Shown here piece after piece: positions 1-23,691 of a stretch of 64,000 bases of DNA (its first letter is position 1; every line of letters begins with the position of its first letter). The position numbers and the translations under genes were made by a program. The DNA is taken from IMG/VR virus record IMGVR_UViG_2862873970_000001, positions 1 to 64,000 of that record. One strand, 5' to 3'. The DNA is from a virus (Duplodnaviria; Caudoviricetes). The notes beneath the pieces are model-generated. The model searched no databases. It had not been told where the DNA came from and saw nothing but the letters and a program-made list of their open reading frames with translations.

Positions 1-687
1 ATGAAGCTGGACGCACCCAAGAACAACAACTACGCCGCCACCATCGTATGTGTCCGCAACCTCATCGAGCTTGACGGTCTGGACAACCTGGTCGGCGTGC
101 CCGTTCTGGGGCACCAGGCCCTCACCCAGAAGGACGTCAAGCACGGCCAGCTTCGCGTGGCCTTCACAGCCGAGACTCAATTGAGCGAGGACTTTTGCGC
201 GATCAACAACCTGTACCGGGACGCAACCCTGAACAAGGATCCCGCGGAGACCGGCTACCTGGAGAAGAACCGTCGCGTCCGGGCGATCAAACTGCGTGGG
301 CACACCTCAAACGCTCTCTTGATGCCGCTGTCATCGCTGGCCTACACCGGCTTTGACGTCCACGGCCTGCTGGAGGGTGACACCTTCGACACCCTGAACG
401 GCCACGAGATCTGCCGCAAGTACGAGATCCAGCGTCACGTTCAGAATCCGGCCAAGAGCAAGGTGGAGAAGGCCTTCAAGCGCGTCGACAAGAAGCTGTT
501 CCCGGAGCACCTGGAGACGGACCAATACCACAGGAACAAGCACTTGCTGAAGGCCGGCCGCGAGGTCGTGGTCACGCAGAAGCTCCATGGAACCAGTTTC
601 AGGGCCGGCTGCGTCGTCCCTGTCCTTCGCCAGCTTTCACCGCTAGAGAGGCTATTGATAAAGCTTCGACTTGCCGAACTCGTATGA
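1..687 (+). CDS. RNA ligase (DRB0094-like), N-terminal half
   Basis: N-terminal OB-like region (RVRAIKLRG..S.ALLMPL) and nucleotidyltransferase motif I TQKLHGTS; the other motifs are in 1135..1779. Confidence 0.75.
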   Translation: MKLDAPKNNNYAATIVCVRNLIELDGLDNLVGVPVLGHQALTQKDVKHGQLRVAFTAETQLSEDFCAINNLYRDATLNKDPAETGYLEKNRRVRAIKLRGHTSNALLMPLSSLAYTGFDVHGLLEGDTFDTLNGHEICRKYEIQRHVQNPAKSKVEKAFKRVDKKLFPEHLETDQYHRNKHLLKAGREVVVTQKLHGTSFRAGCVVPVLRQLSPLERLLIKLRLAELV

Positions 688-1157
688 ACGAAGTCGAGTG
701 TGCGTGGGTGGCCGGACTGCTGGAAGGGGAGGGCTGCTTCAGCTTCGGGGTGAAAAATGGGAGGAAATTTCCCAACATCTCTTGCGGCATGACCGACCAG
801 GACACGATAGAAAAGCTCTTACGCCTGACTGGCGTCGGTGGAATATGTGTTACTCACAGGGAAAACCTAAAGCCAATCTACTCCTGGCGCGTATCCAAGA
901 GGGCTGACGTTGCCCCACTCTTGCATTCGGTACGTCCACACATGTCCACACGTCGAACGGCTCGCATAGATGAGCTTTTAGATTACATAGACACCCACCC
1001 GTTTTACAACGTTCAGCCGGCGGAATGCGGGACGCGCAAAAGTTATCGCCGCGGTTGTAGATGCACGCTCTGCCACGAGGCGAGTAACCAATACCAGCGC
1101 GATTCATATCAGAAGAGAAAGAGGCGTGGGGACAATGCCCTGGTTCAAGAAGATTAA
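684..1157 (+). CDS. LAGLIDADG homing endonuclease with C-terminal Cys-rich tail
   Basis: WVAGLLEGEGCF LAGLIDADG helix; CGT..YRRGCRC..C tail; starts at an ATGA overlap with the ligase N-half stop. Confidence 0.8.
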   Translation: MNEVECAWVAGLLEGEGCFSFGVKNGRKFPNISCGMTDQDTIEKLLRLTGVGGICVTHRENLKPIYSWRVSKRADVAPLLHSVRPHMSTRRTARIDELLDYIDTHPFYNVQPAECGTRKSYRRGCRCTLCHEASNQYQRDSYQKRKRRGDNALVQED

Positions 1158-1779
1158 GATTCCCCGTTACGAATACGACGTAGTGTTTGGATCTCGCAAG
1201 GTAATCAAGGATCCCAACAACCCGAGGCAGAACCATTACTATGATCAGGATATTTGGACACACTACGGCCAGAAGATTGCAGAGCTTTTGCCCGAGGGTG
1301 TCGTCCTCTATGGAGAGCTTGTGGGATGGACGCCTGGTCCCGATGCGGTACCTCTGCAAAAGAACTATACATATCACCTTTCCAAAGGCGAGGCTGAGCT
1401 TTTCGTATACCGGGTATCCACGATCAACTCCCAAGGTGTCCTGACCGATTTGCCCTGGGATGGCGTCAAGGAATTCTGCCAAGCCCGCGGCCTGAAATGG
1501 TGCCCGGAATTGAAGCGCATTCCGCTCCATGGCGGGCGTGAGCCCCTGGTGGAGGTGGAGGAGTTCCTCGGGAATTTCCTGGATGAACGCCTGGCCGATT
1601 TTGGCGGCTGGAATGATATCCCACTCATTGTGTCTAGCCACAAGACGGTTGACGAAGGCATCTGCTTACGCCAAGAGGGATTAGTCCCACTCATTCTCAA
1701 AGCCAAGTCACCCAAATTCCTTGAACACGAAACCAAACTCCTCGACAAGGGAGAGGTTGACCTAGAAAGTGCCGCATAA
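1135..1779 (+). CDS. RNA ligase, C-terminal half
   Basis: FGSRKVIK, LYGELVG (motif III), FVYRV (IIIa), DEGIC (IV), LKAKS (V); ATG 1135 follows an AGAGG RBS. Confidence 0.75.
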   Translation: MPWFKKIKIPRYEYDVVFGSRKVIKDPNNPRQNHYYDQDIWTHYGQKIAELLPEGVVLYGELVGWTPGPDAVPLQKNYTYHLSKGEAELFVYRVSTINSQGVLTDLPWDGVKEFCQARGLKWCPELKRIPLHGGREPLVEVEEFLGNFLDERLADFGGWNDIPLIVSSHKTVDEGICLRQEGLVPLILKAKSPKFLEHETKLLDKGEVDLESAA

Positions 1780-2616
1780 ATGCAGAGCCGGCGTTGCGCT
1801 AAGCCAACATGTAATCGTGCAGAACAGACCGGGGGTTTCTGCAAACCCCACTATGAATTAGAGACCAGGCATTTACCCACAGGCAAGGCCGATCCAGGTC
1901 CTGTCATAGCCCATATCAAGGCACTGTCGGACGCGGGGATATCCAATGCGCGCCTGGGTCAGATGGTCGGCATTCCCCAGAACAATATCTGGGGCATCGT
2001 CGCCGGCCGCCGACGCTATGTGCTGGCCTCTACCGCAGCGAAGATCCTTTCCGTTCCCATTCCGGACGTGCCATGGAAAATCGCCAACGATGGATGTCCC
2101 GTTCCCGCGGTGGGAACTCAGCGCCGACTACAGGCCTTACATGCCATCGGATATCAGGGTCGGCACCTGGCTGAACTCCTGGGTGTAGAGCACTCGGTTG
2201 TCACAGCAATCACGTCGAGTAGACAGCCTGGCGTGAATGCGAAAACGGCGCGAGCCGTGGCCAGGTTGTTCAACGAATTGCAGATGACCCAGGGCCCCAG
2301 TAAAGAGAGTCGACGCCGCGCCGCAGCAAGGGGCTGGGTCGTCCCACTTGCCTGGGATGAGGATTCAATCGATGATCCCGCAGCCTCTCCTCAAATGCCA
2401 GAAGACGATAGCTCGGCTTGGTATGAGGACTACTGCGAGCTGAAAGAAATCGGCCTGGACGACACCCAAATTGCGGAACGCATGGGCATCCAGCGCAGCA
2501 GCCTTCTACACCGATTGCGGAGGCGATCACATGAGCTACAGGGACGTTCGTTGGCACGACCAAGCGGCTTGCAGGGGGATGCCTCTGAGCCTTTTCTTCC
2601 CGCCGCGGGGATGTAG
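1780..2616 (+). CDS. multi-HTH DNA-binding protein
   Basis: Repeated HTH-like segments (ISNARLGQMVGI, GRHLAELLGV, DTQIAERMGI); PLAWDEDSIDDP motif typical of actinophage proteins. Confidence 0.6.
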   Translation: MQSRRCAKPTCNRAEQTGGFCKPHYELETRHLPTGKADPGPVIAHIKALSDAGISNARLGQMVGIPQNNIWGIVAGRRRYVLASTAAKILSVPIPDVPWKIANDGCPVPAVGTQRRLQALHAIGYQGRHLAELLGVEHSVVTAITSSRQPGVNAKTARAVARLFNELQMTQGPSKESRRRAAARGWVVPLAWDEDSIDDPAASPQMPEDDSSAWYEDYCELKEIGLDDTQIAERMGIQRSSLLHRLRRRSHELQGRSLARPSGLQGDASEPFLPAAGM

Positions 2617-2782
2617 TAGCGACGCCGGCAAGAAAGTGTGCAACACATGTCCCGTATGGCAGCAATGCCTTAGGGACACCCTCGCGATAGAGGTATCCGG
2701 TGCCCGCCATGGTGTGTTCGGTGGCATGTCGGCGAATGAACGCAAAGTATTTGATCAGGAAGGCGAGCCATGGGCGGTCTAG
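2531..2782 (+). CDS. whiB: WhiB family transcriptional regulator
   Basis: W..QAACRG..LFFP, C..CPV..QC and GVFGGMS..ER signature. Confidence 0.9.
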   Translation: MSYRDVRWHDQAACRGMPLSLFFPPRGCSSDAGKKVCNTCPVWQQCLRDTLAIEVSGARHGVFGGMSANERKVFDQEGEPWAV

Positions 2783-2931
2783 GTGTCACGGTTACCAATC
2801 TGAACCGGTGGGGCAAGAAGATGAACAAGTGGAAAGTCGTCATCGGTAAGCGCACCCGCTACTTCACCCAGGAAGAGTGGGAAAAAGACGGACTCGCCTG
2901 GGTTAACTCAGCACATCAGCAGGGTGGGTGA
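2770..2931 (+). CDS. small hypothetical protein (53 aa)
   Basis: Open frame bridging whiB and the next gene, with a GTGA overlap. Confidence 0.45.
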   Translation: MGGLGVTVTNLNRWGKKMNKWKVVIGKRTRYFTQEEWEKDGLAWVNSAHQQGG

Positions 2932-3539
2932 GCACGGATCCTCGTTGTCGCTCGGGTAGGCACTGCATAGGCAGAACCTCTGACGGTCCTGCCATCACGG
3001 CCAAGGTCAACACCATCTGCGCCGGCTGTATTCAGGATCTGCAACGCCAGTTAGAGGAGCTACCCCACCTGGCCGCGGCTCTACGATTGTTCCTCGGCGT
3101 CACACCGAAGACCGCTTTGCAGAGTCGGGTTAAGTCATCCCCCGAGCCGGCATGCCCCATCGATCCCCGCGTTGATGAACTCTTGGTCGACATCTCCGAC
3201 GTCATTGAACGCACCGACAACCTTCGGGTGGCAGACCTCATCGCTCAGCCCCCCACCAAGTTTCAGGTCTGGTACAAGGACAAGGCCTACGACAAATACT
3301 TGGAAGGTTGGCAACGCGCCTGCGATATCCGCGGGGTGCATGTCAGGGCCAACGCCATCCTCGGCTTCGGCCGTATCGCAGTGAAGCGTCACGCCCCCTG
3401 CCCCAGATGCGGCCTGCCCACTCTTCAGCAGTGGATCGGCGACCCCACTATCGAATGCAGCGACGAGGAATGCGGATTCGTCATGTCCCTGGACGAATAC
3501 GACCAGCACTGCAACGACCTCGCGAAGGACTCCAAGTGA
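2928..3539 (+). CDS. hypothetical protein with Zn-finger motifs
   Basis: CRSGRHC, CAGC, CPRC...C...C; coupled within the operon. Confidence 0.6.
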   Translation: MSTDPRCRSGRHCIGRTSDGPAITAKVNTICAGCIQDLQRQLEELPHLAAALRLFLGVTPKTALQSRVKSSPEPACPIDPRVDELLVDISDVIERTDNLRVADLIAQPPTKFQVWYKDKAYDKYLEGWQRACDIRGVHVRANAILGFGRIAVKRHAPCPRCGLPTLQQWIGDPTIECSDEECGFVMSLDEYDQHCNDLAKDSK

Positions 3540-3721
3540 AGAAGAGATACAAGAAACCACCGCCCGAATTCTTTCAGGTAGAAATCGTCTGCCCCGAGGT
3601 GTGTCTTCACCCCGTCGCCATCCACTTTGTGTGGATCGGCAACGCGGACGAGTCCGGTGTGGTTCAGGTCGAGGTGGCCAGGGATTTCCTGGAGAACATC
3701 GCGGGGCTGTTAGGTGACTAA
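3536..3721 (+). CDS. small hypothetical protein
   Basis: GTGA and TAATG coupling to both neighbours. Confidence 0.45.
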   Translation: MKKRYKKPPPEFFQVEIVCPEVCLHPVAIHFVWIGNADESGVVQVEVARDFLENIAGLLGD

Positions 3722-4785
3722 TGCTTTACTCCCTCCTCCCGCCCGAGATCAACTCGCTGAGGATGTATACGGGTGCGGGCGCTGGCCCTCTTGTGGCTGC
3801 AGCAGCCTCGTGGTCCCAGATAGCGAACGGGCTGAGCGATGCTGCGATGCAGCACGTCGCGACGGTTACGGCGTTAGCGGGTGTATGGACGGGTCCTTCA
3901 TCCGACGCCATGTTGAAGTCCTCCCTGGCGTATACCAAGTGGTTAACGTCTACGGCAGCACAGGCGGAAGTGACGGCGACACAGGCACAAGCCGCGGTCG
4001 CCGCATACGAGACCGCCTTCGCCGCTACCGTTCCGCCATTCGAGGTCACTGAGAATCGCGCTCGACTCACTGCTCTGGTTGCTACCAATTTCCTGGGTGT
4101 GAATACGCCGGTCATCATGGCTACCGAGGCGCAGTATTCGGAGATGTGGGCACAAGACGCCGCCGCGATGACCACCTATCAGGTGTCATCTATGCAGGCG
4201 ACCAGACTGCCTAGTTTTACCCCGCTCAAACCGCTCACAACGAACGTTGCGCAGCAGCCCAAGCAACTACCGCAGGGTGGCATTCAGAACGCTCTACAGG
4301 GGCTACAAAACATTGATCCCACAACGGGATGGCTGGGTCTATTCAATGACTACATCCAGTCCAACCTATCCTCCGGGGTCCTGTTCGATGTTCCCTTGGG
4401 TGTCATTCAATCCATCACCTCGACAGTGGCATTGATGAGCCTCTTTCAGGGTGAGAAGCAGATCGCCATCGGCGAGGCGCAACTCCCGCCTGAGCAGGTG
4501 GCCCAGATCGAATCCCGCTTCGGCGGGGGAATGACAGGTGGCCTCAACACCGCCGCGTCATTCGGTAACGCCCAGTCAGTGGGCAAGCTGAGTGTCCCCC
4601 AATCCTGGGAGCGTTCAGCATCCCTGCCGTTCACTAATCCTGAACCTGTCTCAGCATTGAACACGGGCGAGGGGTACTTCGGTCCCCCTGTCACGCCACT
4701 ACTTGGCAGGCGGGAAAAGCCCGAGCCGGCACGCTACGGCTTCCGCCAAAAGAAACTCATTCCACGCCATCCATCCGGAGGGTAA
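3721..4785 (+). CDS. PPE family protein, SVP subgroup
   Basis: LLPPEINS.RMY.G.G..PL..AA..W N-terminus, WTG (WxG), NFLG.NTP, EA.Y.EMWAQD, C-terminal GKLSVPQSW and RYGFR. Confidence 0.95.
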   Translation: MLYSLLPPEINSLRMYTGAGAGPLVAAAASWSQIANGLSDAAMQHVATVTALAGVWTGPSSDAMLKSSLAYTKWLTSTAAQAEVTATQAQAAVAAYETAFAATVPPFEVTENRARLTALVATNFLGVNTPVIMATEAQYSEMWAQDAAAMTTYQVSSMQATRLPSFTPLKPLTTNVAQQPKQLPQGGIQNALQGLQNIDPTTGWLGLFNDYIQSNLSSGVLFDVPLGVIQSITSTVALMSLFQGEKQIAIGEAQLPPEQVAQIESRFGGGMTGGLNTAASFGNAQSVGKLSVPQSWERSASLPFTNPEPVSALNTGEGYFGPPVTPLLGRREKPEPARYGFRQKKLIPRHPSGG

Positions 4786-4786
4786 T

Positions 4787-5050
4787 TTGTACTTCAAGCA
4801 GCATCAGGAAAAGGCTAAGCCACAGCTTGGCTTTGGACCGAGCCTCGAATATTCCACCGCACTCGGGTCCACCCCCACGCTGACGGTTGAGTGGATGGGC
4901 CGGCGACTCACGCGCGAGGGTGTGCCCCTTAATTACAAGACCATTTTTCGCGTAGCCAATGAGCTACTGGCCGAGATCAAGATGTTCTACGGCATTATTT
5001 CTGATGAAAAGGAGTTCGTGGCACCGCCATGCCTGCTGACACGACGCTGA
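4787..5050 (+). CDS. hypothetical protein
   Basis: TTG after a GGAGG RBS; fills the gap before ssb. Confidence 0.45.
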
Positions 5051-5463
5051 CCATTGTCGGCAATCTAACTGCCGATCCTGAACTTCGCTTCACCCCCAGT
5101 GGTGCCGCGGTATCCAACTTCACCATCGCCAGCACCCCGCGGCTCTACGACCGCCAGAGCGGGGAATGGAAAGACGGCGACGCCCTTTTCATGCGCTGCA
5201 ACATTTGGCGCGAGGCCGCCGAGAACGTGGCGGAAACCCTTCAGCGCGGCCAGCGTGTGATCGCCACCGGCCGGCTCAAGTCCCGCTCTTATGAAACCCG
5301 CGAGGGCGAGAAACGCACCGTCATGGAGCTTGAGGTGGACGAGATCGGCCCGAGCCTGCGTTACGCCACGGCACGGGTGAGCAAGAGCGACAACCGGCCA
5401 TCGGGTGGTACCAAGACCAACTCCGATGCATGGGGCGGATCTGACGACGAACCGCCATTCTGA
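5029..5463 (+). CDS. ssb: single-stranded DNA-binding protein
   Basis: [39 protein letters not shown]-terminal DDEPPF. Confidence 0.97.
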
Positions 5464-5546
5464 CGAAATTCGTCTGAAACCCGAAAATCCACCCCCGGGG
5501 AAAACCCCCGAAATCGAAAATGTGGGCCCCTAATGCAAGGAGAAAA

Positions 5547-6293
5547 ATGACCAGTCCCGCAGAAACCGCCAAGTTCGAAGCAGAAGCAGCTCACCTCTTG
5601 GCCCAGACCGAACTGCGCAAGGCCGAAACGCGCCGCAAGCTCGCCGAAGCTGTTGCCGCCGAATACCACATGGAGACGGCCCGCATCGCCCGTGACGCCG
5701 CTGTGCGCCAGGAGAAGATCGCGACGTCGGCCAACCACCACCACTACCAGTTCGACTTTCTGACTGGGGTGTACGACGAGCCGGTCACCGCCTGCCTCGC
5801 GCAACTGGCCATCTGGCACCGCAACGAACCGAACTGCCCGATGACCATCGTCATGGACTCCCCGGGTGGATCAGTGATCGACGGCATGCACCTGTTCGAC
5901 CAGATCACCGCCTACTCCACACGGCCGTGGGACACCAGCAGTCGGCCCAAGGGCACGCACCACACCACCATGATTGTGCGCGGTTACGCCGCCTCCATGG
6001 CCGGCATCCTGCTGCAGTCTGCGGACCACAGGATTGTGGGGCCCGAGTCTTACATCATGGTTCACGAGGTGTCGTCATTTGCCCAGGGGAAAATCGGTGA
6101 ACTCAAGGATGAAATAAAATTTCTCGATAAAATGAGTGATCGTGTGGCGAATATCTTTGTCACCCGAGCGCAGGCCACGGGCCGTCCCGACGCTATTGAC
6201 CTGGATACCTTTAAGGCAAAATGGAACCGCCAAGATTGGTGGCTCGATTCCGAAGAGGCGTACAGGCTGGGTATCGTAGACGAAATTGGGTAG
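5547..6293 (+). CDS. ClpP-like serine protease with N-terminal coiled coil
   Basis: DSPGGSV..G, GYAASMAG, IMVHE, DWWLDSEEA..LGIVDEI. Confidence 0.9.
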   Translation: MTSPAETAKFEAEAAHLLAQTELRKAETRRKLAEAVAAEYHMETARIARDAAVRQEKIATSANHHHYQFDFLTGVYDEPVTACLAQLAIWHRNEPNCPMTIVMDSPGGSVIDGMHLFDQITAYSTRPWDTSSRPKGTHHTTMIVRGYAASMAGILLQSADHRIVGPESYIMVHEVSSFAQGKIGELKDEIKFLDKMSDRVANIFVTRAQATGRPDAIDLDTFKAKWNRQDWWLDSEEAYRLGIVDEIG

Positions 6294-6765
6294 TTGCTCA
6301 GTTGCGGTCTGTGGCCGAGCGGCGGTTAAGAAGTCCCTGTGCGATGCGCATTATTTACGCATGCAACGCGGAGCCCCGCTAGATAGTCCAATCAGACCTT
6401 GGCGAAGCCGTCAAGATGCCATCGTTACTAACTGCGATGACTGCGTATCCAGTGGACAAATGTGCTCCACACATTTCGCCCAGACCAAGAGGTACAAGCT
6501 GGACCCAAAGATCCTGGCCCAAATGCTGTCGCGCGGTTGCTATGTCTGCGGAGCCCCGCGCGACAGGAATGGGCGGGCTCTGCGTATAGACCATGATCAC
6601 ACATGCTGCCCGGGTCGATTTGGCTGCGGCGAATGTGTGCGTGGTGTCTTATGTAACCTGCACAATATCCAGGCGGGGTATCTACAACATCCAGATCGAG
6701 ATGCCGTACAGCGATATCTTAATGAATGGGAGTCGACAAGATTAGCCAATACTCCAAGGACGTAA
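6286..6765 (+). CDS. endonuclease VII-like HNH protein
   Basis: C..CG....IDHDH.CC......CG.CVRGVLC..HN; N-terminal Cys/His finger. Confidence 0.85.
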   Translation: MGSCSVAVCGRAAVKKSLCDAHYLRMQRGAPLDSPIRPWRSRQDAIVTNCDDCVSSGQMCSTHFAQTKRYKLDPKILAQMLSRGCYVCGAPRDRNGRALRIDHDHTCCPGRFGCGECVRGVLCNLHNIQAGYLQHPDRDAVQRYLNEWESTRLANTPRT

Positions 6766-6914
6766 TCGAAAACCGGAAGTGGGCGCTGGGAATGGCCGGC
6801 GCCCTACTTCAACGCGTTCCCACTGGCATCGGTATCGCTAGTGCAGTGACGGACATGGCTGAGCACTTCTACAGGTGGGCCACCGTCCCACCGGAGAAAG
6901 GTAAGAATGGCTGA
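6726..6914 (+). CDS. hypothetical protein
   Basis: Operon-coupled ORF. Confidence 0.4.
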   Translation: MGVDKISQYSKDVIENRKWALGMAGALLQRVPTGIGIASAVTDMAEHFYRWATVPPEKGKNG

Positions 6915-7146
6915 CTTCCGCCTGGCCTACCTCCTAGAGGCTCGGGAATGCCACCGGCAGCGCCAAAAGCAGAGCCTCTACTCCCTACCCTTCTGGGCCA
7001 ACCTCATCGGGGCCCTAGCCAACGGCATCATCGCCTGCGTACCTGATTCGGTCGCTGCAGCGTTTGAGGCCCAGCAGGCCTGGGATAGGGAAGCTCGCAA
7101 CCATCTGCGTGACGCGGTAGAGGATGCCCTTGACCGAGCTGGATAA
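6907..7146 (+). CDS. hypothetical protein
   Basis: RBS and overlap coupling. Confidence 0.5.
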   Translation: MADFRLAYLLEARECHRQRQKQSLYSLPFWANLIGALANGIIACVPDSVAAAFEAQQAWDREARNHLRDAVEDALDRAG

Positions 7147-7564
7147 CCTGGACTACCACCCGCTTACTGGTCCACTCATCGCCCTTGTTGCGCTCTTCTT
7201 CTTCGTGCTCGCCGCATGGGTTGCTGGTTACTTCTACAAGGGTCGGCACCGCGGTGAGTACGTTGAGAAACCGGAATGGCGCCAGAGGTGGCAGTTTGTC
7301 AACGTCGATCCTGAGCCGTGGCACGTCACCATTTTCGGCAATGTGCTGATTCGTGAGTGCAAGCCGGTGGAGATTAAGCCGGATACAACCCATCTGGACA
7401 TAACCGTGCTTGGCGGTGGCGGGGGTAGTTATGGAAGATTTGGCGACAGCGATATTGACCTGGCCGATACAGCACCTCTATGGCCTTTTCTGGAGGCTGG
7501 GTCTCTTGGAGATCTTGAAGCAGAAGGATGGGTCGACATCGGAGTGTGCAAGGAGTTCAAATGA
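7124..7564 (+). CDS. membrane-anchored hypothetical protein
   Basis: One hydrophobic segment LIALVALFFFVLAAWVAGYFY. Confidence 0.55.
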   Translation: MPLTELDNLDYHPLTGPLIALVALFFFVLAAWVAGYFYKGRHRGEYVEKPEWRQRWQFVNVDPEPWHVTIFGNVLIRECKPVEIKPDTTHLDITVLGGGGGSYGRFGDSDIDLADTAPLWPFLEAGSLGDLEAEGWVDIGVCKEFK

Positions 7565-7749
7565 GTGAACGCTACGGCACCATTGACGAAGTGTATGAGT
7601 TAATGCCCGATTTCGAGGATTGGGTCCGCAAGGAGATCGAGAAGGTTCGCAGCGGAATATACACCGTGGCAACCGTGGGCGAGGCTCAGGTCATGCACGG
7701 ACGCTGGGAGGCATTTCAGGACGTTCTATCGTGGTGGGGCGTTGGCTGA
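7561..7749 (+). CDS. hypothetical protein
   Basis: AAGGAG RBS; ATGA overlap. Confidence 0.5.
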   Translation: MSERYGTIDEVYELMPDFEDWVRKEIEKVRSGIYTVATVGEAQVMHGRWEAFQDVLSWWGVG

Positions 7750-8071
7750 CTGGCACACAAGGTACCGCCGGATCATAGACGCCTATCGCACGAGGCTGAT
7801 GGAGGTATCGCTAGCCGCATGCAATGAGGTCGATGATCGTATGTGGGCAAGCGGGGAAAAGTGGCTTGTTAACGACGCCCCCATTGACTTAGATCGGCTG
7901 ATGTCAGCCCGCGATCTCGCGGAGCGCTTCGGGTTCACTGAGCAGAATATCCGTGACTGGGCGCGTCGACACCGCGACAAGGTACCCACGCATAAACAAT
8001 CAGATGGACGTGCGTTATATCGTGTGCGCGATGTCCTAAGATATCGAGCCGAGCGCGAGCGCAATGGCTAG
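7742..8071 (+). CDS. HTH DNA-binding protein (MerR/excisionase-like)
   Basis: LMSARDLAERFG..EQNIRDWARR...GRALYRVRDV. Confidence 0.65.
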   Translation: MADWHTRYRRIIDAYRTRLMEVSLAACNEVDDRMWASGEKWLVNDAPIDLDRLMSARDLAERFGFTEQNIRDWARRHRDKVPTHKQSDGRALYRVRDVLRYRAERERNG

Positions 8072-8480
8072 CCGCCTGGGGGGCCTTAAGGGATGCCTGT
8101 ATATAGTAAGATTCCGGAATGGCGTACTAAAGGTTGGCAGGACCGTCCGTCCCGTGCAGCAGAGATTCACCGAGTATGAGCGCGAGGCCAGGGTCCATGA
8201 CAATCCAATCGTGGCTGCGTTCGCCTCCCGCCAGTTTATGGGCATAGACACTGCCGAGAATGATCTAATTGGCTGGATGCATAAGCATGCTATCGGCATG
8301 TCGACGAAACGATCTGAATGGTTTCGCCCACGCACCGGGGAGTCCGATTCCGTGTATGTCGGGGCCAGGGTGACCATTGCACAGTTATCCGACTCCAAAA
8401 TGGCATGCTATAGGCCATTGGTGCAGCCCAGCATGTATTTTGCCGGGGAGTGGCCCGTCCCGCACGCGATAGCGTGCTAG
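8064..8480 (+). CDS. GIY-YIG/T5orf172-like protein
   Basis: GCLYIV.....LKVGRT....QRF, AE..L, SEWF. Confidence 0.6.
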   Translation: MASRLGGLKGCLYIVRFRNGVLKVGRTVRPVQQRFTEYEREARVHDNPIVAAFASRQFMGIDTAENDLIGWMHKHAIGMSTKRSEWFRPRTGESDSVYVGARVTIAQLSDSKMACYRPLVQPSMYFAGEWPVPHAIAC

Positions 8481-8482
8481 GC

Positions 8483-8511
8483 TTTTTCCGTAGCACAGCT
8501 ATATCTACAAT
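8483..8511 (+). promoter_or_regulatory. putative SigA promoter for the long ncRNA
   Basis: TACAAT at 8506-8511 in an AT-rich patch just before the structured region; the -35 match is weak. Confidence 0.4.
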
Positions 8512-8517
8512 CAAAAA

Positions 8518-9301
8518 TCTTTAGGGCATGACCTATAAGCCGCCGCAAGGTGGTGAAAGGCGAGGTGACAACTCGCCGCCGGCAACGGTACCTCATGCAA
8601 TCCCAACTCAACACCGTCACTGATACTGGCGGTGCGCTACCGAGTTACGCCCCCGGCCCAGGGCTGTGAACCAGTGGGGCTGACCATGCCGTACGTGCGG
8701 CTGAAAAGGCTATCGAACAAGGCTAGCGTGAGTGCGGAAGGAATATCAGTCCGACCCCGGCAGGGAAGGGCGGATTCCATGACGGTTTTAGTGCGGTGGT
8801 CGACGGATCACACGACGAATCCTGAGGGTGCGAAACAGGTGAGCCGACCTGAAGCACGAGAGGCGTGAAGCATTCTGTACCTCAAAAGGGTGCGGACCTT
8901 CATGGGGAAGCACGTCTCCAGTCAAAAACACACTTAGCTCATTGGCAGAGCATTGATATTTGGAATCAACGGAGTGGGTTCGATCCCCACAGTGTAATCA
9001 TCGCTATATGGTTATATAAAGCAAAAGCCTTTCCCTGCTGTAAAGTTAAAGCGTCTTAATCCCCTGCCGAGGTCGGAACAGGGGCCGTCACGAGCCCGCA
9101 AGGCGACGGCGGTTCATGGACAAGTAGTGCAGCTCTGGGCCCGCGAACCCAGTGTCGAAGCGAACGTCGTGGAGTAGCTTGCAGCATAACGAGTGGTTAG
9201 CGTAACTGACCAGGCGTGGTAAGTACCGATGGGAATCGGTGGAAAAGTCAGGAATCCATAATCTGGCGAAAGCTTACTGAGGAACGGTGTATTCTCAGCC
9301 T
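8518..9301 (+). ncRNA. large structured ncRNA, GOLLD-like
   Basis: ~780 nt with no convincing ORF; many GNRA-capped stems; internal tRNA-like element; segments such as TCAAAAGG, GAGTAG, ACGAGTGGT and terminal GTATTCTCAG resemble GOLLD as I recall it. Boundaries approximate. Confidence 0.65.
8928..8998 (+). tRNA. degenerate tRNA-like element (anticodon TTG, Gln) inside the ncRNA
   Basis: D arm GCTC-ATTGGCA-GAGC, anticodon arm TTGAT-ATTTGGA-ATCAA, T arm GTGGG-TTCGATC-CCCAC; acceptor stem only 5 bp (ACACT/AGTGT); no CCA. Confidence 0.6.
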
Positions 9302-9532
9302 CTACAAACTTTAATAGGACCGCGCCGGGGCGCTATGGGCAGGAACCGACCTGCCACCCGGCCGTCACCGCGCTTATCCCGACGCGCCTGATAAGTATCG
9401 GGACAAAACTTAAGCTCCCTCGCGCCCACGCTGGTGGCCGGTTTATCCGGTGGTAAATTCCATAGCAGGGAGAGCTGCACCGAGGGGCGTAAAGGTGCGG
9501 ACCCAAAATTACGTGATGTAAAGGATGGCGTG

Positions 9533-9805
9533 ATGCCAAAAGAAATCATTCAGTTCGCACAGACCGAGCTGCCCAGTGGGCAGCCAGTCGCTGATGCCAC
9601 CAGCGTGGAATTGCGCTGGTCGAAGCCCGAGGCCGGCGGTAATCTCCAGTTGCGCTTTCAGCGCCACGTCTGGGATCAATCCTTCCGTGACTCAGGCGTC
9701 GAAGAGATCGACCAGTACACCGACCAACTCAGCCGTGATGATTGCAACCGGCTGATTCGGGCGCTGAGGCGTGCTCGCGACCAGGTTTACGGCGCGGACG
9801 CATAA
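9533..9805 (+). CDS. hypothetical protein
   Basis: AAGGA RBS; C-terminus LSR..CN.LIR.LRRARDQ.YG.D typical of actinophage proteins. Confidence 0.65.
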   Translation: MPKEIIQFAQTELPSGQPVADATSVELRWSKPEAGGNLQLRFQRHVWDQSFRDSGVEEIDQYTDQLSRDDCNRLIRALRRARDQVYGADA

Positions 9806-10030
9806 AACTCTCCCACCCTAGTCGTCGGGGTGGGGTGATCTACAAAGGCGACACGACGTCTGACATAGCGCAGTATGTCCGCTGATTGCCGGCGTTAGGG
9901 CAGTCGGGGGCCAACTCACGCCCACCCCTTGTGAACAACCTATGGGCGTCTAACTTCTAATTCTGGCGCTCCCCGGCCACTATCCCTTCCTACTAAATGC
10001 AGTGGAGTTGAGGGTTTTGAGCGCCACGCA

Positions 10031-10072
10031 CCGGGGTGCCCCCGTTAAGGCTGAGGCACCCCGGCTCTCTTT
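10031..10072 (+). terminator. putative intrinsic terminator
   Basis: CCGGGGTGCC...GGCACCCCGG stem followed by CTCTCTTT. Confidence 0.5.
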
Positions 10073-10091
10073 ATGTAAGGAGCCATTGAGT

Positions 10092-10328
10092 ATGAACGCT
10101 GGCTGGAAATGGATGCAGTTGTTCCTCAATGTGCTGGATTACGAACTTGACGATGGCCCGATGTTGTCGGAAGGCGCGGATTCGCTCGTGGAGCAACATC
10201 CCATCGCCGGCCGCGTGTTCATCGTGTCAGTCGGCTCGATCATCACCCTCCATCTCGCCAACCTCATGGACGAGAGATACGACCTGTTAGCCCAATCATT
10301 TTGGAAGAGACTTCGTAAGGGAAGATAA
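10092..10328 (+). CDS. hypothetical (membrane) protein
   Basis: AAGGAG RBS; hydrophobic segment. Confidence 0.5.
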   Translation: MNAGWKWMQLFLNVLDYELDDGPMLSEGADSLVEQHPIAGRVFIVSVGSIITLHLANLMDERYDLLAQSFWKRLRKGR

Positions 10329-10826
10329 ATGGCATCCAGAGCCGAACGCAAACAATTGAATAAGAATTGGCTGCGGAAGCTGCTGACTGGACAACCACAC
10401 TTTATCATCGGCGGTGAGCACAACCCCTATTTACTTAGGTGGTTTTTGATCCCCCGCAACTCCTTTATCAACATCTATCTGCATAAATTCAAGCGCAGCG
10501 ACGACGACCGCGCCTTGCACGACCATCCCTGGTGGTTCGCCTCCCTGATCCTCAAGGGTCAGTACATCGAGCACCGCGACGATGGCTCTACAAGGCACCG
10601 GAAAGCGGGCTCAGTTGCCCTCAGGCGGCCGAACACGCTTCACCGGGTGCAACTCCTACAAGAGGTTGTCACCAGCGATGCCGGCTGGACCATGCAGCGC
10701 GAGCGTCCCACCTGGACGTTGATTGTCACCGGGCCTAAATTGCGCAATTGGGGATTCGAATGCGCGCGCGGATGGGTTCCCTGGGAGTACTTCGAACACA
10801 ATAATGGATGCGGCGAATACGCTTGA
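10329..10826 (+). CDS. cupin-like hypothetical protein
   Basis: IYLH.F.RSDDDRALHDHPW...G.Y.E...HRV.L. Confidence 0.65.
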   Translation: MASRAERKQLNKNWLRKLLTGQPHFIIGGEHNPYLLRWFLIPRNSFINIYLHKFKRSDDDRALHDHPWWFASLILKGQYIEHRDDGSTRHRKAGSVALRRPNTLHRVQLLQEVVTSDAGWTMQRERPTWTLIVTGPKLRNWGFECARGWVPWEYFEHNNGCGEYA

Positions 10827-15712: not shown

Positions 15713-15742
15713 TTAGCCGATAACGTTGCGTTTATGAAATCC
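15713..15742 (+). repeat. dif/Xer-like site D
   Basis: TTAGCCGATAA-CGTTGCGT-TTATGAAATCC. Confidence 0.7.
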
Positions 15743-15813
15743 GGTGTCGTCTAACGGCAGGACGTCGGGCTCTGGACCCGAAGGTTGGGGTTCGAATCCT
15801 TGCACCGGAGCCA
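15740..15813 (+). tRNA. tRNA-Gln(CTG)
   Basis: Full cloverleaf TCCGGTG...CACCGGA-G-CCA, anticodon arm TCGGG-CTCTGGA-CCCGA, GGTTCGAATCC T loop. Confidence 0.95.
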
Positions 15814-23408: not shown

Positions 23409-23481
23409 TGGCGTGTAGCTCAATGGGCAGAGCAGCGGATTGTTAATCCGCCGGTTGGAGGTTCGAATCCTCCCGCGCCAG
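23409..23481 (+). tRNA. tRNA-Asn(GTT)
   Basis: TGGCGTG/CGCGCCA acceptor stem, GCTC-AATGGGCA-GAGC, GCGGA-TTGTTAA-TCCGC, GGAGG-TTCGAAT-CCTCC. Confidence 0.93.
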
Positions 23482-23691
23482 CCTGTAGCCGTCGAGATAG
23501 GGCTCCAGTGGCATTGAGAACTTGAGATGGACGACGCCGAGGTAATTGCCGACTTCGTCATAGACCTCGCAGAAGCTGTACATGCCGTCGAGGTGGTCGA
23601 ATTCCACCCACCCGTCCGGATAGTCCCCAGGGCATAGCCCATGGATCTTCGGCCGCGGATTCTGCCGCTGCGGTAGGTCGCTTAACTGCAT
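23443..23691 (-). CDS. hypothetical protein
   Basis: AAGGA RBS; FDHLDGMYSFC motif; 3' end overlaps the tRNA antisense. Confidence 0.55.
   Translation of the reverse strand: MQLSDLPQRQNPRPKIHGLCPGDYPDGWVEFDHLDGMYSFCEVYDEVGNYLGVVHLKFSMPLEPYLDGYRLAREDSNLQPAD

Follow-up and report, generated by a model that had tools for sequence, protein, structure and literature searches.

A GOLLD RNA gene standing outside any tRNA-gene block in an integrated prophage

Introduction

GOLLD RNAs are encoded in phages and prophages, usually beside tRNA genes, and some of them hold a tRNA within their linker. They are expected as discrete RNAs whose level rises during the lytic cycle. The GOLLD genes of mycobacterial tRNA clusters were reportedly treated by Morgado in 2020, in work that Kretsch et al. 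cite. ROOL RNA (RF03087) is likewise a large RNA of phages and prophages that lies near tRNA islands, and it forms RNA-only cages.

Two GOLLD RNAs have been characterized structurally. Excerpts of Kretsch et al. describe env-38 GOLLD, from a marine metagenome, as a 14-mer cage with D7 symmetry by cryo-EM. The 3' domain of Streptococcus agalactiae GOLLD is reported to form 8-, 10- and 12-mers, mostly the decamer, and the cage functions suggested are encapsulation or presentation of the linker tRNA, ribosome binding and storage (excerpts of Kretsch et al. and of PMC12990946). For mycobacteria, the excerpted text of Behra et al. 2019 (PMC6582537) places a GOLLD with an internal pseudo-tRNA and a weak Northern signal in clusters of 32-37 tRNAs, and names M. 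aubagnense, M. abscessus M24 and M. conceptionense as carriers of GOLLD-bearing clusters. Mycobacterial GOLLD in tRNA clusters is repeated in PMC9569102 and PMC6418233, and as far as the excerpts of these three papers go, the published mycobacterial copies lie in 32-37-tRNA clusters.

Here we describe a GOLLD copy found in a 64,000-nt stretch of DNA (hereafter the window, to which positions refer unless a contig is given). Our joint reading, to which we assign a probability of roughly 0.87, is that 8519-9303 (+) is the GOLLD RNA gene of an integrated prophage of ~78.6 kb, that its product would assemble as a cage and that it probably has a promoter of its own.

Results

Identity and extent of the RNA

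Inspection of the window reveals a gene-free gap between an ORF at 8064-8480 and the next gene, which starts at 9434 or 9534. A preliminary description had marked 8518-9301 as a long stretch without genes and had proposed GOLLD or a related class. We confirm this stretch, with nearly exact coordinates: homology runs from 8519/8520 to ~9303 and only short ORFs lie inside. The RNA is GOLLD itself. In the Rfam gathering-threshold scan of the whole window, RF02032 (GOLLD) matches 8858-9301 (+) with 222 bits against a cut-off of 150 (E 1.6e-61). The match spans the full length of the model (1-416 of 416) and was recovered again in a whole-genome search and an E-value scan. Four matches were returned by the gathering-threshold scan, namely GOLLD and three tRNAs, one of the latter lying within the GOLLD match. 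Among the 11 GOLLD copies scored, 222 bits is the top Rfam score, the remaining copies reaching 144.5-216.4.

The Rfam alignment places the UCAAAAG loop, AAAGCAAAAG, GAGUAG, GAGUGGU, AUAAUC and the terminal GUAnUCUCAG with high posterior probability. The motifs named in the preliminary description (UCAAAAG, GAGUAG, GAGUGGU and a 3' GUAUUCUCAG) all stand at conserved positions of the Rfam consensus. Model positions ~230-277 are replaced by a local insertion (16+23 nt) that still folds as a hairpin. The proposed check with both the GOLLD and the ROOL covariance models thus returned the former and not the latter: ROOL (RF03087) gave no match at its gathering score in the window, nor at E <= 1 in 8300-9700. 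The permissive Rfam scan of 8300-9700 (E <= 1) yielded nothing beyond GOLLD and tRNA, with no ROOL, ribozyme or YrlA. We conclude that 8519-9303 (+) is a non-coding RNA gene of ~785 nt and a genuine member of RF02032.

The Rfam GOLLD model describes the conserved 3' domain only, and 8518-8857 was therefore assessed by comparison with homologues. In alignments of 11 and 16 sequences, homology to relatives starts abruptly at 8519/8520 and ends at ~9303, with flanks that cannot be aligned. The RNA accordingly comprises a clade-specific 5' cap domain of ~340 nt (8519-8857, +), conserved from its first base in both alignments, a linker with a tRNA-like module, and the universally conserved 3' domain (8858-9301, +). 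Its 5' domain is structured and less conserved, and the total of ~785 nt falls within the ~700-850 nt looked for.

Could the stretch instead code for small proteins, whether one or several, of the kind that the records of related phages show? Deposited 'hypothetical protein' coding sequences of 38-47 codons do lie over the 5' domain in Estes, Rey and Aziz, and the window itself carries + strand ORFs of 78 aa (8632-8868) and 64 aa (8865-9059), the longest inside the RNA. However, no ORF of >= 30 codons occupies common alignment columns across the 16 homologues, the annotated ORF (columns 259 to 397-426; to 536 in MrMagoo) is restricted to four Reyvirus copies, and the substitutions compensate for base pairing. 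We give this alternative almost no credence.

Homologues and novelty

A blastn search of the phage collection found homologues in 32 records, all of them Mycobacterium phages (29 with M. smegmatis as host and three M. abscessus prophages), at 67-80% identity, the longest matches running from ~8519-8524 to ~9304 of the window. All nine phage records that were fetched exceed the GOLLD cut-off, with 182-216 bits. Among 151 genomes sampled from the host's GTDB family, the window's own included, there is one other copy (genome G143), which at 144.5 bits falls just below the cut-off. The nhmmer profile identified GOLLD in 15 of 57 loci from an IMG/VR scan, and a scan of metagenome contigs with a 49-position degenerate pattern gave one short contig with GOLLD (L194). 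A scan of genome contigs with a 15-base motif, which is short, produced no GOLLD-profile match among the matches listed (at least 120 stretches). Removal of copies more than 98% identical left 17 distinct sequences. The window copy is 53-75% identical to the others, or 66-75% when two copies cut short by their loci (53-60%) are set aside.

The preliminary description had regarded a GOLLD in a mycobacterial phage as unusual. That view is not borne out: GOLLD RNAs of mycobacterial tRNA clusters have been published since 2019 (PMC6582537), and homologues occur in 32 Mycobacterium phage records. The literature already covers the GOLLD family, its occurrence in mycobacteria and the cage structure, and the copy described here is ordinary except that it stands alone, outside any tRNA-gene block. 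What is new is modest: the prophage is a mosaic and lacks an array, the sequence is divergent, and one loop palindrome has been swapped.

Two further observations concern the records themselves. The copy in G143 (C1:4004000-4023999, at ~9665-10445 (-) of that extract) is a second array-less GOLLD of the clade, from another genus of the family; its embedded tRNA is called as SeC(UCA), and other tRNAs are absent within +/-10 kb. In the nine fetched phage records GOLLD is unannotated throughout, three of them (Estes, Rey and Aziz) placing a 'hypothetical protein' over the 5' domain, and the linker module is labelled tRNA-Leu in the Estes record and tRNA-Ser in the Rey record.

Compensatory changes maintain the helices

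The 5' domain begins with a closing helix around three hairpins, in which two GCAA tetraloops flank one larger loop. Its consensus fold, derived from 11 sequences, contains 52 pairs, 24 of them with compensatory changes; in the 16-sequence count, 21 of the 35 pairs of helices 1-5 and 7-10 covary. The stems read by eye in the preliminary description recur in these structures. In the consensus fold GCATGA/TCATGC is helix 1, GCCGCC-GCAA-GGTGGT helix 2, GGCGAG/CTCGCC helix 3 and GCCG-GCAA-CGGT helices 4/5, and CTGGG/CCCAG (9135-9139 with 9148-9152) is helix 22; the Rfam alignment pairs GCCGTC/GACGGC and ACCGAT-GGGA-ATCGGT.

Covariation among homologues, which had been named as a check, is present above both kinds of control. 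Across the full RNA in 16 homologues, compensatory changes occur in 64 of 132 pairs, compared with 34.5 +/- 2.9 in shuffles and <=26 in slid controls, and 95.8% of cells are paired, compared with 84.3% in shuffles (0 of 500 reach the observed value) and <=48.2% in slid controls; these counts use a structure derived from the tested sequences themselves, which favours it. One pair of helix 1 (14-104) is A-U in the window alone and G-C in the other 15 sequences. The helices are shown to be maintained by compensatory substitutions, some of which are unique to the window lineage.

Alignments of the 17 copies draw attention to the hairpin of helix 22 (9135-9152, +), whose 8-nt loop (9140-9147) carries the palindrome CGCG at 9142-9145. 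The loop columns read GGCC in 15 copies, CGCG in the window only and AGCU in one metagenome copy, where the tetranucleotide is shifted by one column; each of the three is self-complementary. Palindrome-for-palindrome exchange in a hairpin loop is taken as support for a symmetric intermolecular kissing loop in the excerpts of Kretsch et al., in which the GOLLD kissing loop with palindrome covariation is L21a, bridge B8 of the cryo-EM structure. By analogy, the hairpin at 9135-9152 is a candidate symmetric intermolecular kissing loop, which would correspond to L21a/bridge B8 by position only. The replacement of GGCC by CGCG in the window is what would be expected of a self-pairing kissing loop. 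This independent palindrome swap offers a ready-made test of cage formation in this clade.

A tRNA-Gln(UUG)-like module in the linker

The variable linker of the 3' domain holds a tRNA-Gln(UUG)-like module at 8928-8999 (+), detected by the Rfam tRNA model (46.5 bits, 8928-8998) and by ARAGORN. Its D, anticodon and T arms are canonical. Its acceptor forms five of seven pairs, with both terminal pairs mismatched, and it has neither a U1-A72 pair nor an encoded CCA. The host tRNA-Gln(UUG) and the free-standing prophage tRNA-Gln(CUG) both begin with U and close with A, whereas the embedded module does not.

ARAGORN-type calls across homologous loci indicate that the anticodon of the linker module differs in almost every lineage, with Leu-UAG, Ser-GGA, Met-CAU, His-AUG, Ser-UGA, SeC-UCA, Pro-AGG and Arg-UCU among the homologues and an unreadable anticodon in the M. 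abscessus prophages. No linker tRNA was called in Aziz, MrMagoo, Bongo, Reindeer or Nanosmite; in the alignment, Nanosmite has a deletion at this place and the other four keep a truncated remnant. We read the embedded module as a variable, tRNA-shaped insert of a linker that would lie in the cage interior, rather than as a proven decoding tRNA. Its defective acceptor end, together with the mycobacterial counterpart, an internal pseudo-tRNA that gave no Northern signal according to the excerpted text of PMC6582537, makes a role as mature-tRNA cargo doubtful.

tRNA surroundings

The prophage has three tRNAs (Gln-UUG-like, Gln-CUG and Asn-GUU), 6.7 and 14.4 kb apart, and no tmRNA. Apart from the embedded module, no tRNA lies within 6.7 kb of the window GOLLD, the free-standing tRNA-Gln(CUG) and tRNA-Asn(GUU) being at 15740-15813 (+) and 23409-23483 (+). 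The same three identities stand immediately around GOLLD in the M. abscessus prophages, in contrast to their scatter over ~14.5 kb here. All three prophage tRNAs duplicate host isoacceptors. Codon compensation was considered as an explanation for them and rejected; it is weak for Gln, with a CAA share of 0.215 vs 0.188. The Asn codon AAT is commoner in the prophage (0.316 vs 0.174).

At 23 of 27 homologous loci GOLLD is flanked by tRNAs in a dense array, often with a tmRNA, and mostly there is a tRNA 6-10 nt past the GOLLD 3' end. Flanking tRNAs are missing from the remaining four, namely the window, G143 and two loci cut by their ends. On the 5' side, Bongo and the metagenome copy L194 have a tRNA ending 1-3 nt from GOLLD. 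The Reyvirus copies have a tRNA-like module directly against the GOLLD 5' end and their nearest called tRNA ~80 nt or more upstream, and in the M. abscessus prophages the nearest upstream tRNA is 369-445 nt away.

The tRNA-like module of the Reyvirus copies is an unannotated, circularly permuted tRNA shape, present in Rey (L005 1424-1493), Estes (L001 ~2784-2855) and MrMagoo (L009 ~1302-1373) between tRNA-Asn and the GOLLD 5' end. It consists of a T arm, a loop-capped acceptor stem and a D arm closed by a 5-bp stem, and a Ro-binding stem is absent. Rey and Estes have different acceptor and T stems, which remain paired in both. We considered the module as a novel element and rejected this, since it corresponds to the tRNA-like domain of YrlA (RF02553), a known family: the Rey module scores 43.6 bits against a cut-off of 69 (E 4.7e-09, model 23-85 of 114). 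YrlA was likewise sought at 8440-8518 of the window, where RF02553 gives no match at E <= 1 and the fold is no better than shuffles (z -1.15). A hairpin at 8462-8487 in the window aligns with the acceptor hairpin of the YrlA-like module in Rey and Estes. The window stretch 8440-8518, aligned to that module, has decayed.

Decay of the neighbourhood raises the question of whether the whole locus is a relic, its tRNA array lost from the phage lineage and the RNA gene itself disappearing. Three tRNAs and no tmRNA in ~78.6 kb, set beside the 6-21 tRNA/tmRNA genes that relatives have within a few kb of GOLLD, would fit such a history, as would the two mismatched terminal acceptor pairs of the embedded tRNA and the loss of a family match from the upstream stretch that aligns to the YrlA-like module. 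Yet the RNA has the best Rfam score among the copies scored, over the full model, and compensatory changes unique to the lineage preserve helix 1 and the loop palindrome. Pairing at 95.8% with 66-75% identity to full-length relatives would not persist without selection. We therefore regard a decaying relic as very unlikely, and favour a maintained GOLLD gene.

Upstream elements and transcription

The hairpin at 8462-8487 (+) is terminator-like, with a 6-bp stem and a GATA loop followed by a T-run, and it stands at the end of the ORF at 8064-8480. It is a candidate for the end of the preceding transcription unit; a pattern scan found one such site vs 1.5 expected in shuffles, so that the pattern is weak alone. 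The hexamer TACAAT, which had been noted ahead of the RNA, is indeed present at 8506-8511 (+), resembles a -10 element and precedes the first conserved base by 7-8 nt. Three M. abscessus prophage relatives have TATAGT at an equal distance. The pattern scan detected no full sigma-70 consensus and no terminator past the GOLLD 3' end. In the downstream spacer (9302-9533) there is no Rfam match at E <= 1 and the fold is like that of shuffles (z -1.04); we take it as plain spacer or leader.

In relatives, tRNA-processing enzymes (RNase P and 3'-processing) could cut GOLLD from the array transcript by way of the flanking tRNAs. The window copy, with no flanking tRNAs, would be transcribed from TACAAT, just past the terminator-like hairpin of the upstream gene. 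Alternatively, GOLLD may be cut by host RNases from a long + strand early-operon transcript, TACAAT being a chance match. The neighbouring genes all lie on the same strand, head to tail, from 1 to 8480 and again from 9434; neither a full promoter consensus nor a terminator after the RNA accompanies the hexamer; and the GOLLD of relatives is clearly within a polycistronic tRNA array. Against processing from an operon stand the terminator-like hairpin and T-run 30 nt upstream, the good placement of the -10-like hexamer, with TATAGT likewise in the M. abscessus prophage copies, and the lack of a flanking tRNA or known ribozyme to set the ends. We consider operon processing possible, if rather doubtful. 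The placement of the -10 element at 8506-8511 is suggestive only, and GOLLD is probably transcribed from it. A search of sequencing runs listed no RNA run with this sequence, and the best DNA runs shared at most 0.15 of its words, a result that does not bear on expression.

Prophage context

The window corresponds to C58:24886-88885 of a 5.47-Mb chromosome assembly of 146 contigs with 67.7% GC. Within contig C58, an island of 56-61% GC extends over ~24.8-103.4 kb, with host lepA to its left and a tyrosine integrase at its right end, which comes after a polynucleotide kinase-phosphatase and a DnaB-like helicase. The island encodes a terminase, a head-maturation/ClpP-like protease, long tail genes, a DnaQ-like exonuclease, a MazG-like hydrolase and HNH/EndoVII nucleases. 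We identify the element as an integrated prophage of ~78.6 kb, whose left end is ~8.6 kb away from GOLLD. Of the mycobacteriophage source proposed earlier, the affinity stands, the nearest phages being mycobacterial, but the free phage genome gives way to an integrated prophage in a bacterial chromosome contig. The label 'mycobacterial' derives from the nearest phages alone.

Different parts of the prophage point to different relatives. For the terminase, tblastn gives 68.8% identity (70% in a whole-record search) to Kostyavirus phages such as Pumpkin, and the genomes of Rey, Bongo, prophiGD54-2 and MkaliMitinis3 yielded nothing at E <= 0.001. At the DNA level the RNA ligase is similar to Lclasvirinae phages, and GOLLD resembles Mclasvirinae; Pumpkin and MkaliMitinis3 contain no GOLLD at E <= 1. 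These affinities mark the prophage as a mosaic.

At 1-1779 (+), a free-standing HNH endonuclease ORF interrupts the RNA ligase gene. The ligase parts occupy 1-687 (+; PHROG 968 positions 2-203) and 1126-1779 (+; positions 203-398), and the HNH ORF occupies 684-1157 (+). The MkaliMitinis3 homologue is instead one uninterrupted gene of 1278 nt, and Rfam detected no group I intron at the split gene. The polynucleotide kinase-phosphatase lies at C58 ~99,990-100,945 (L193 3990-4946; Pfam HAD_PNKP 1.1e-49, AAA_33). It and the RNA ligase are at opposite prophage ends and would adjoin across the attachment site in a circular phage genome. As predicted from their protein families, the two are a tRNA healing-and-sealing pair.

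Discussion

As a GOLLD, the copy described here adds little; its value is that of a natural variant. By analogy with the two GOLLD RNAs of known assembly, the transcript would fold without protein into separate 5' and 3' domains and assemble as a closed homo-oligomeric RNA cage. The 5' domains would cap each half-shell, and the 3' domains would join the half-shells by way of kissing loops that pair with themselves, a part that would fall here to the CGCG loop at 9140-9147. The tRNA-Gln(UUG)-like module and the linker that holds it would face the cage interior. Cage formation by 8519-9303 is extrapolated from two distant members of the family, env-38 and S. agalactiae.

The most likely role is the one proposed in print, in which a phage RNA of the lytic cycle would sequester or present the linker tRNA or other translation components. 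A bolder joint reading can be framed for this locus, in which GOLLD has been freed from the tRNA array, has its own promoter and resides in a mosaic prophage with a tRNA-repair pair, the caged tRNA-Gln look-alike serving as decoy or bait. Were this so, the job of the cage would be unlinked from array processing, and the module might bait a host enzyme that targets tRNA, for example a defence system's anticodon nuclease; the look-alike, lacking the U1-A72 pair, would not be a decoding tRNA. We judge this reading unlikely. A mycobacterial-type GOLLD can evidently persist under purifying selection in a phage with almost no tRNA genes, which argues against GOLLD as a mere accessory of tRNA arrays.

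Among known systems, ROOL RNA is unrelated to 8519-9303 in sequence and fold. The closest counterparts are in Mclasvirinae phages (Rey, Estes, Aziz, MrMagoo, Nanosmite, Bongo, PegLeg and others), which carry a 5' domain of like type that can be aligned from the first base and a like 3' domain; 'Cluster M' is the phage-hunters' name for these GOLLD-bearing phages. The GOLLD genes of mycobacterial tRNA clusters also rank among the nearest known systems. The phage backbone of the Mclasvirinae differs from that of the window, with its Kostyavirus-like terminase. The M. abscessus prophages prophiGD54-2, prophi86-1 and prophiT49-2 also have a GOLLD with a like type of 5' domain and 3' domain. Both groups share with the window a tRNA-like module at the equal linker position, a similar strand logic and nearby HNH endonuclease genes. 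The window GOLLD differs from theirs in sequence, at 69-75% identity, in having CGCG rather than GGCC, and in its candidate promoter. Env-38 and S. agalactiae GOLLD belong with the window copy to a common Rfam family and share with it the 3' domain motifs and a linker able to hold a tRNA. Within the family, it is the 5' domain that diverges. As in env-38 and S. agalactiae, the window copy has a self-complementary hairpin loop whose palindrome covaries.
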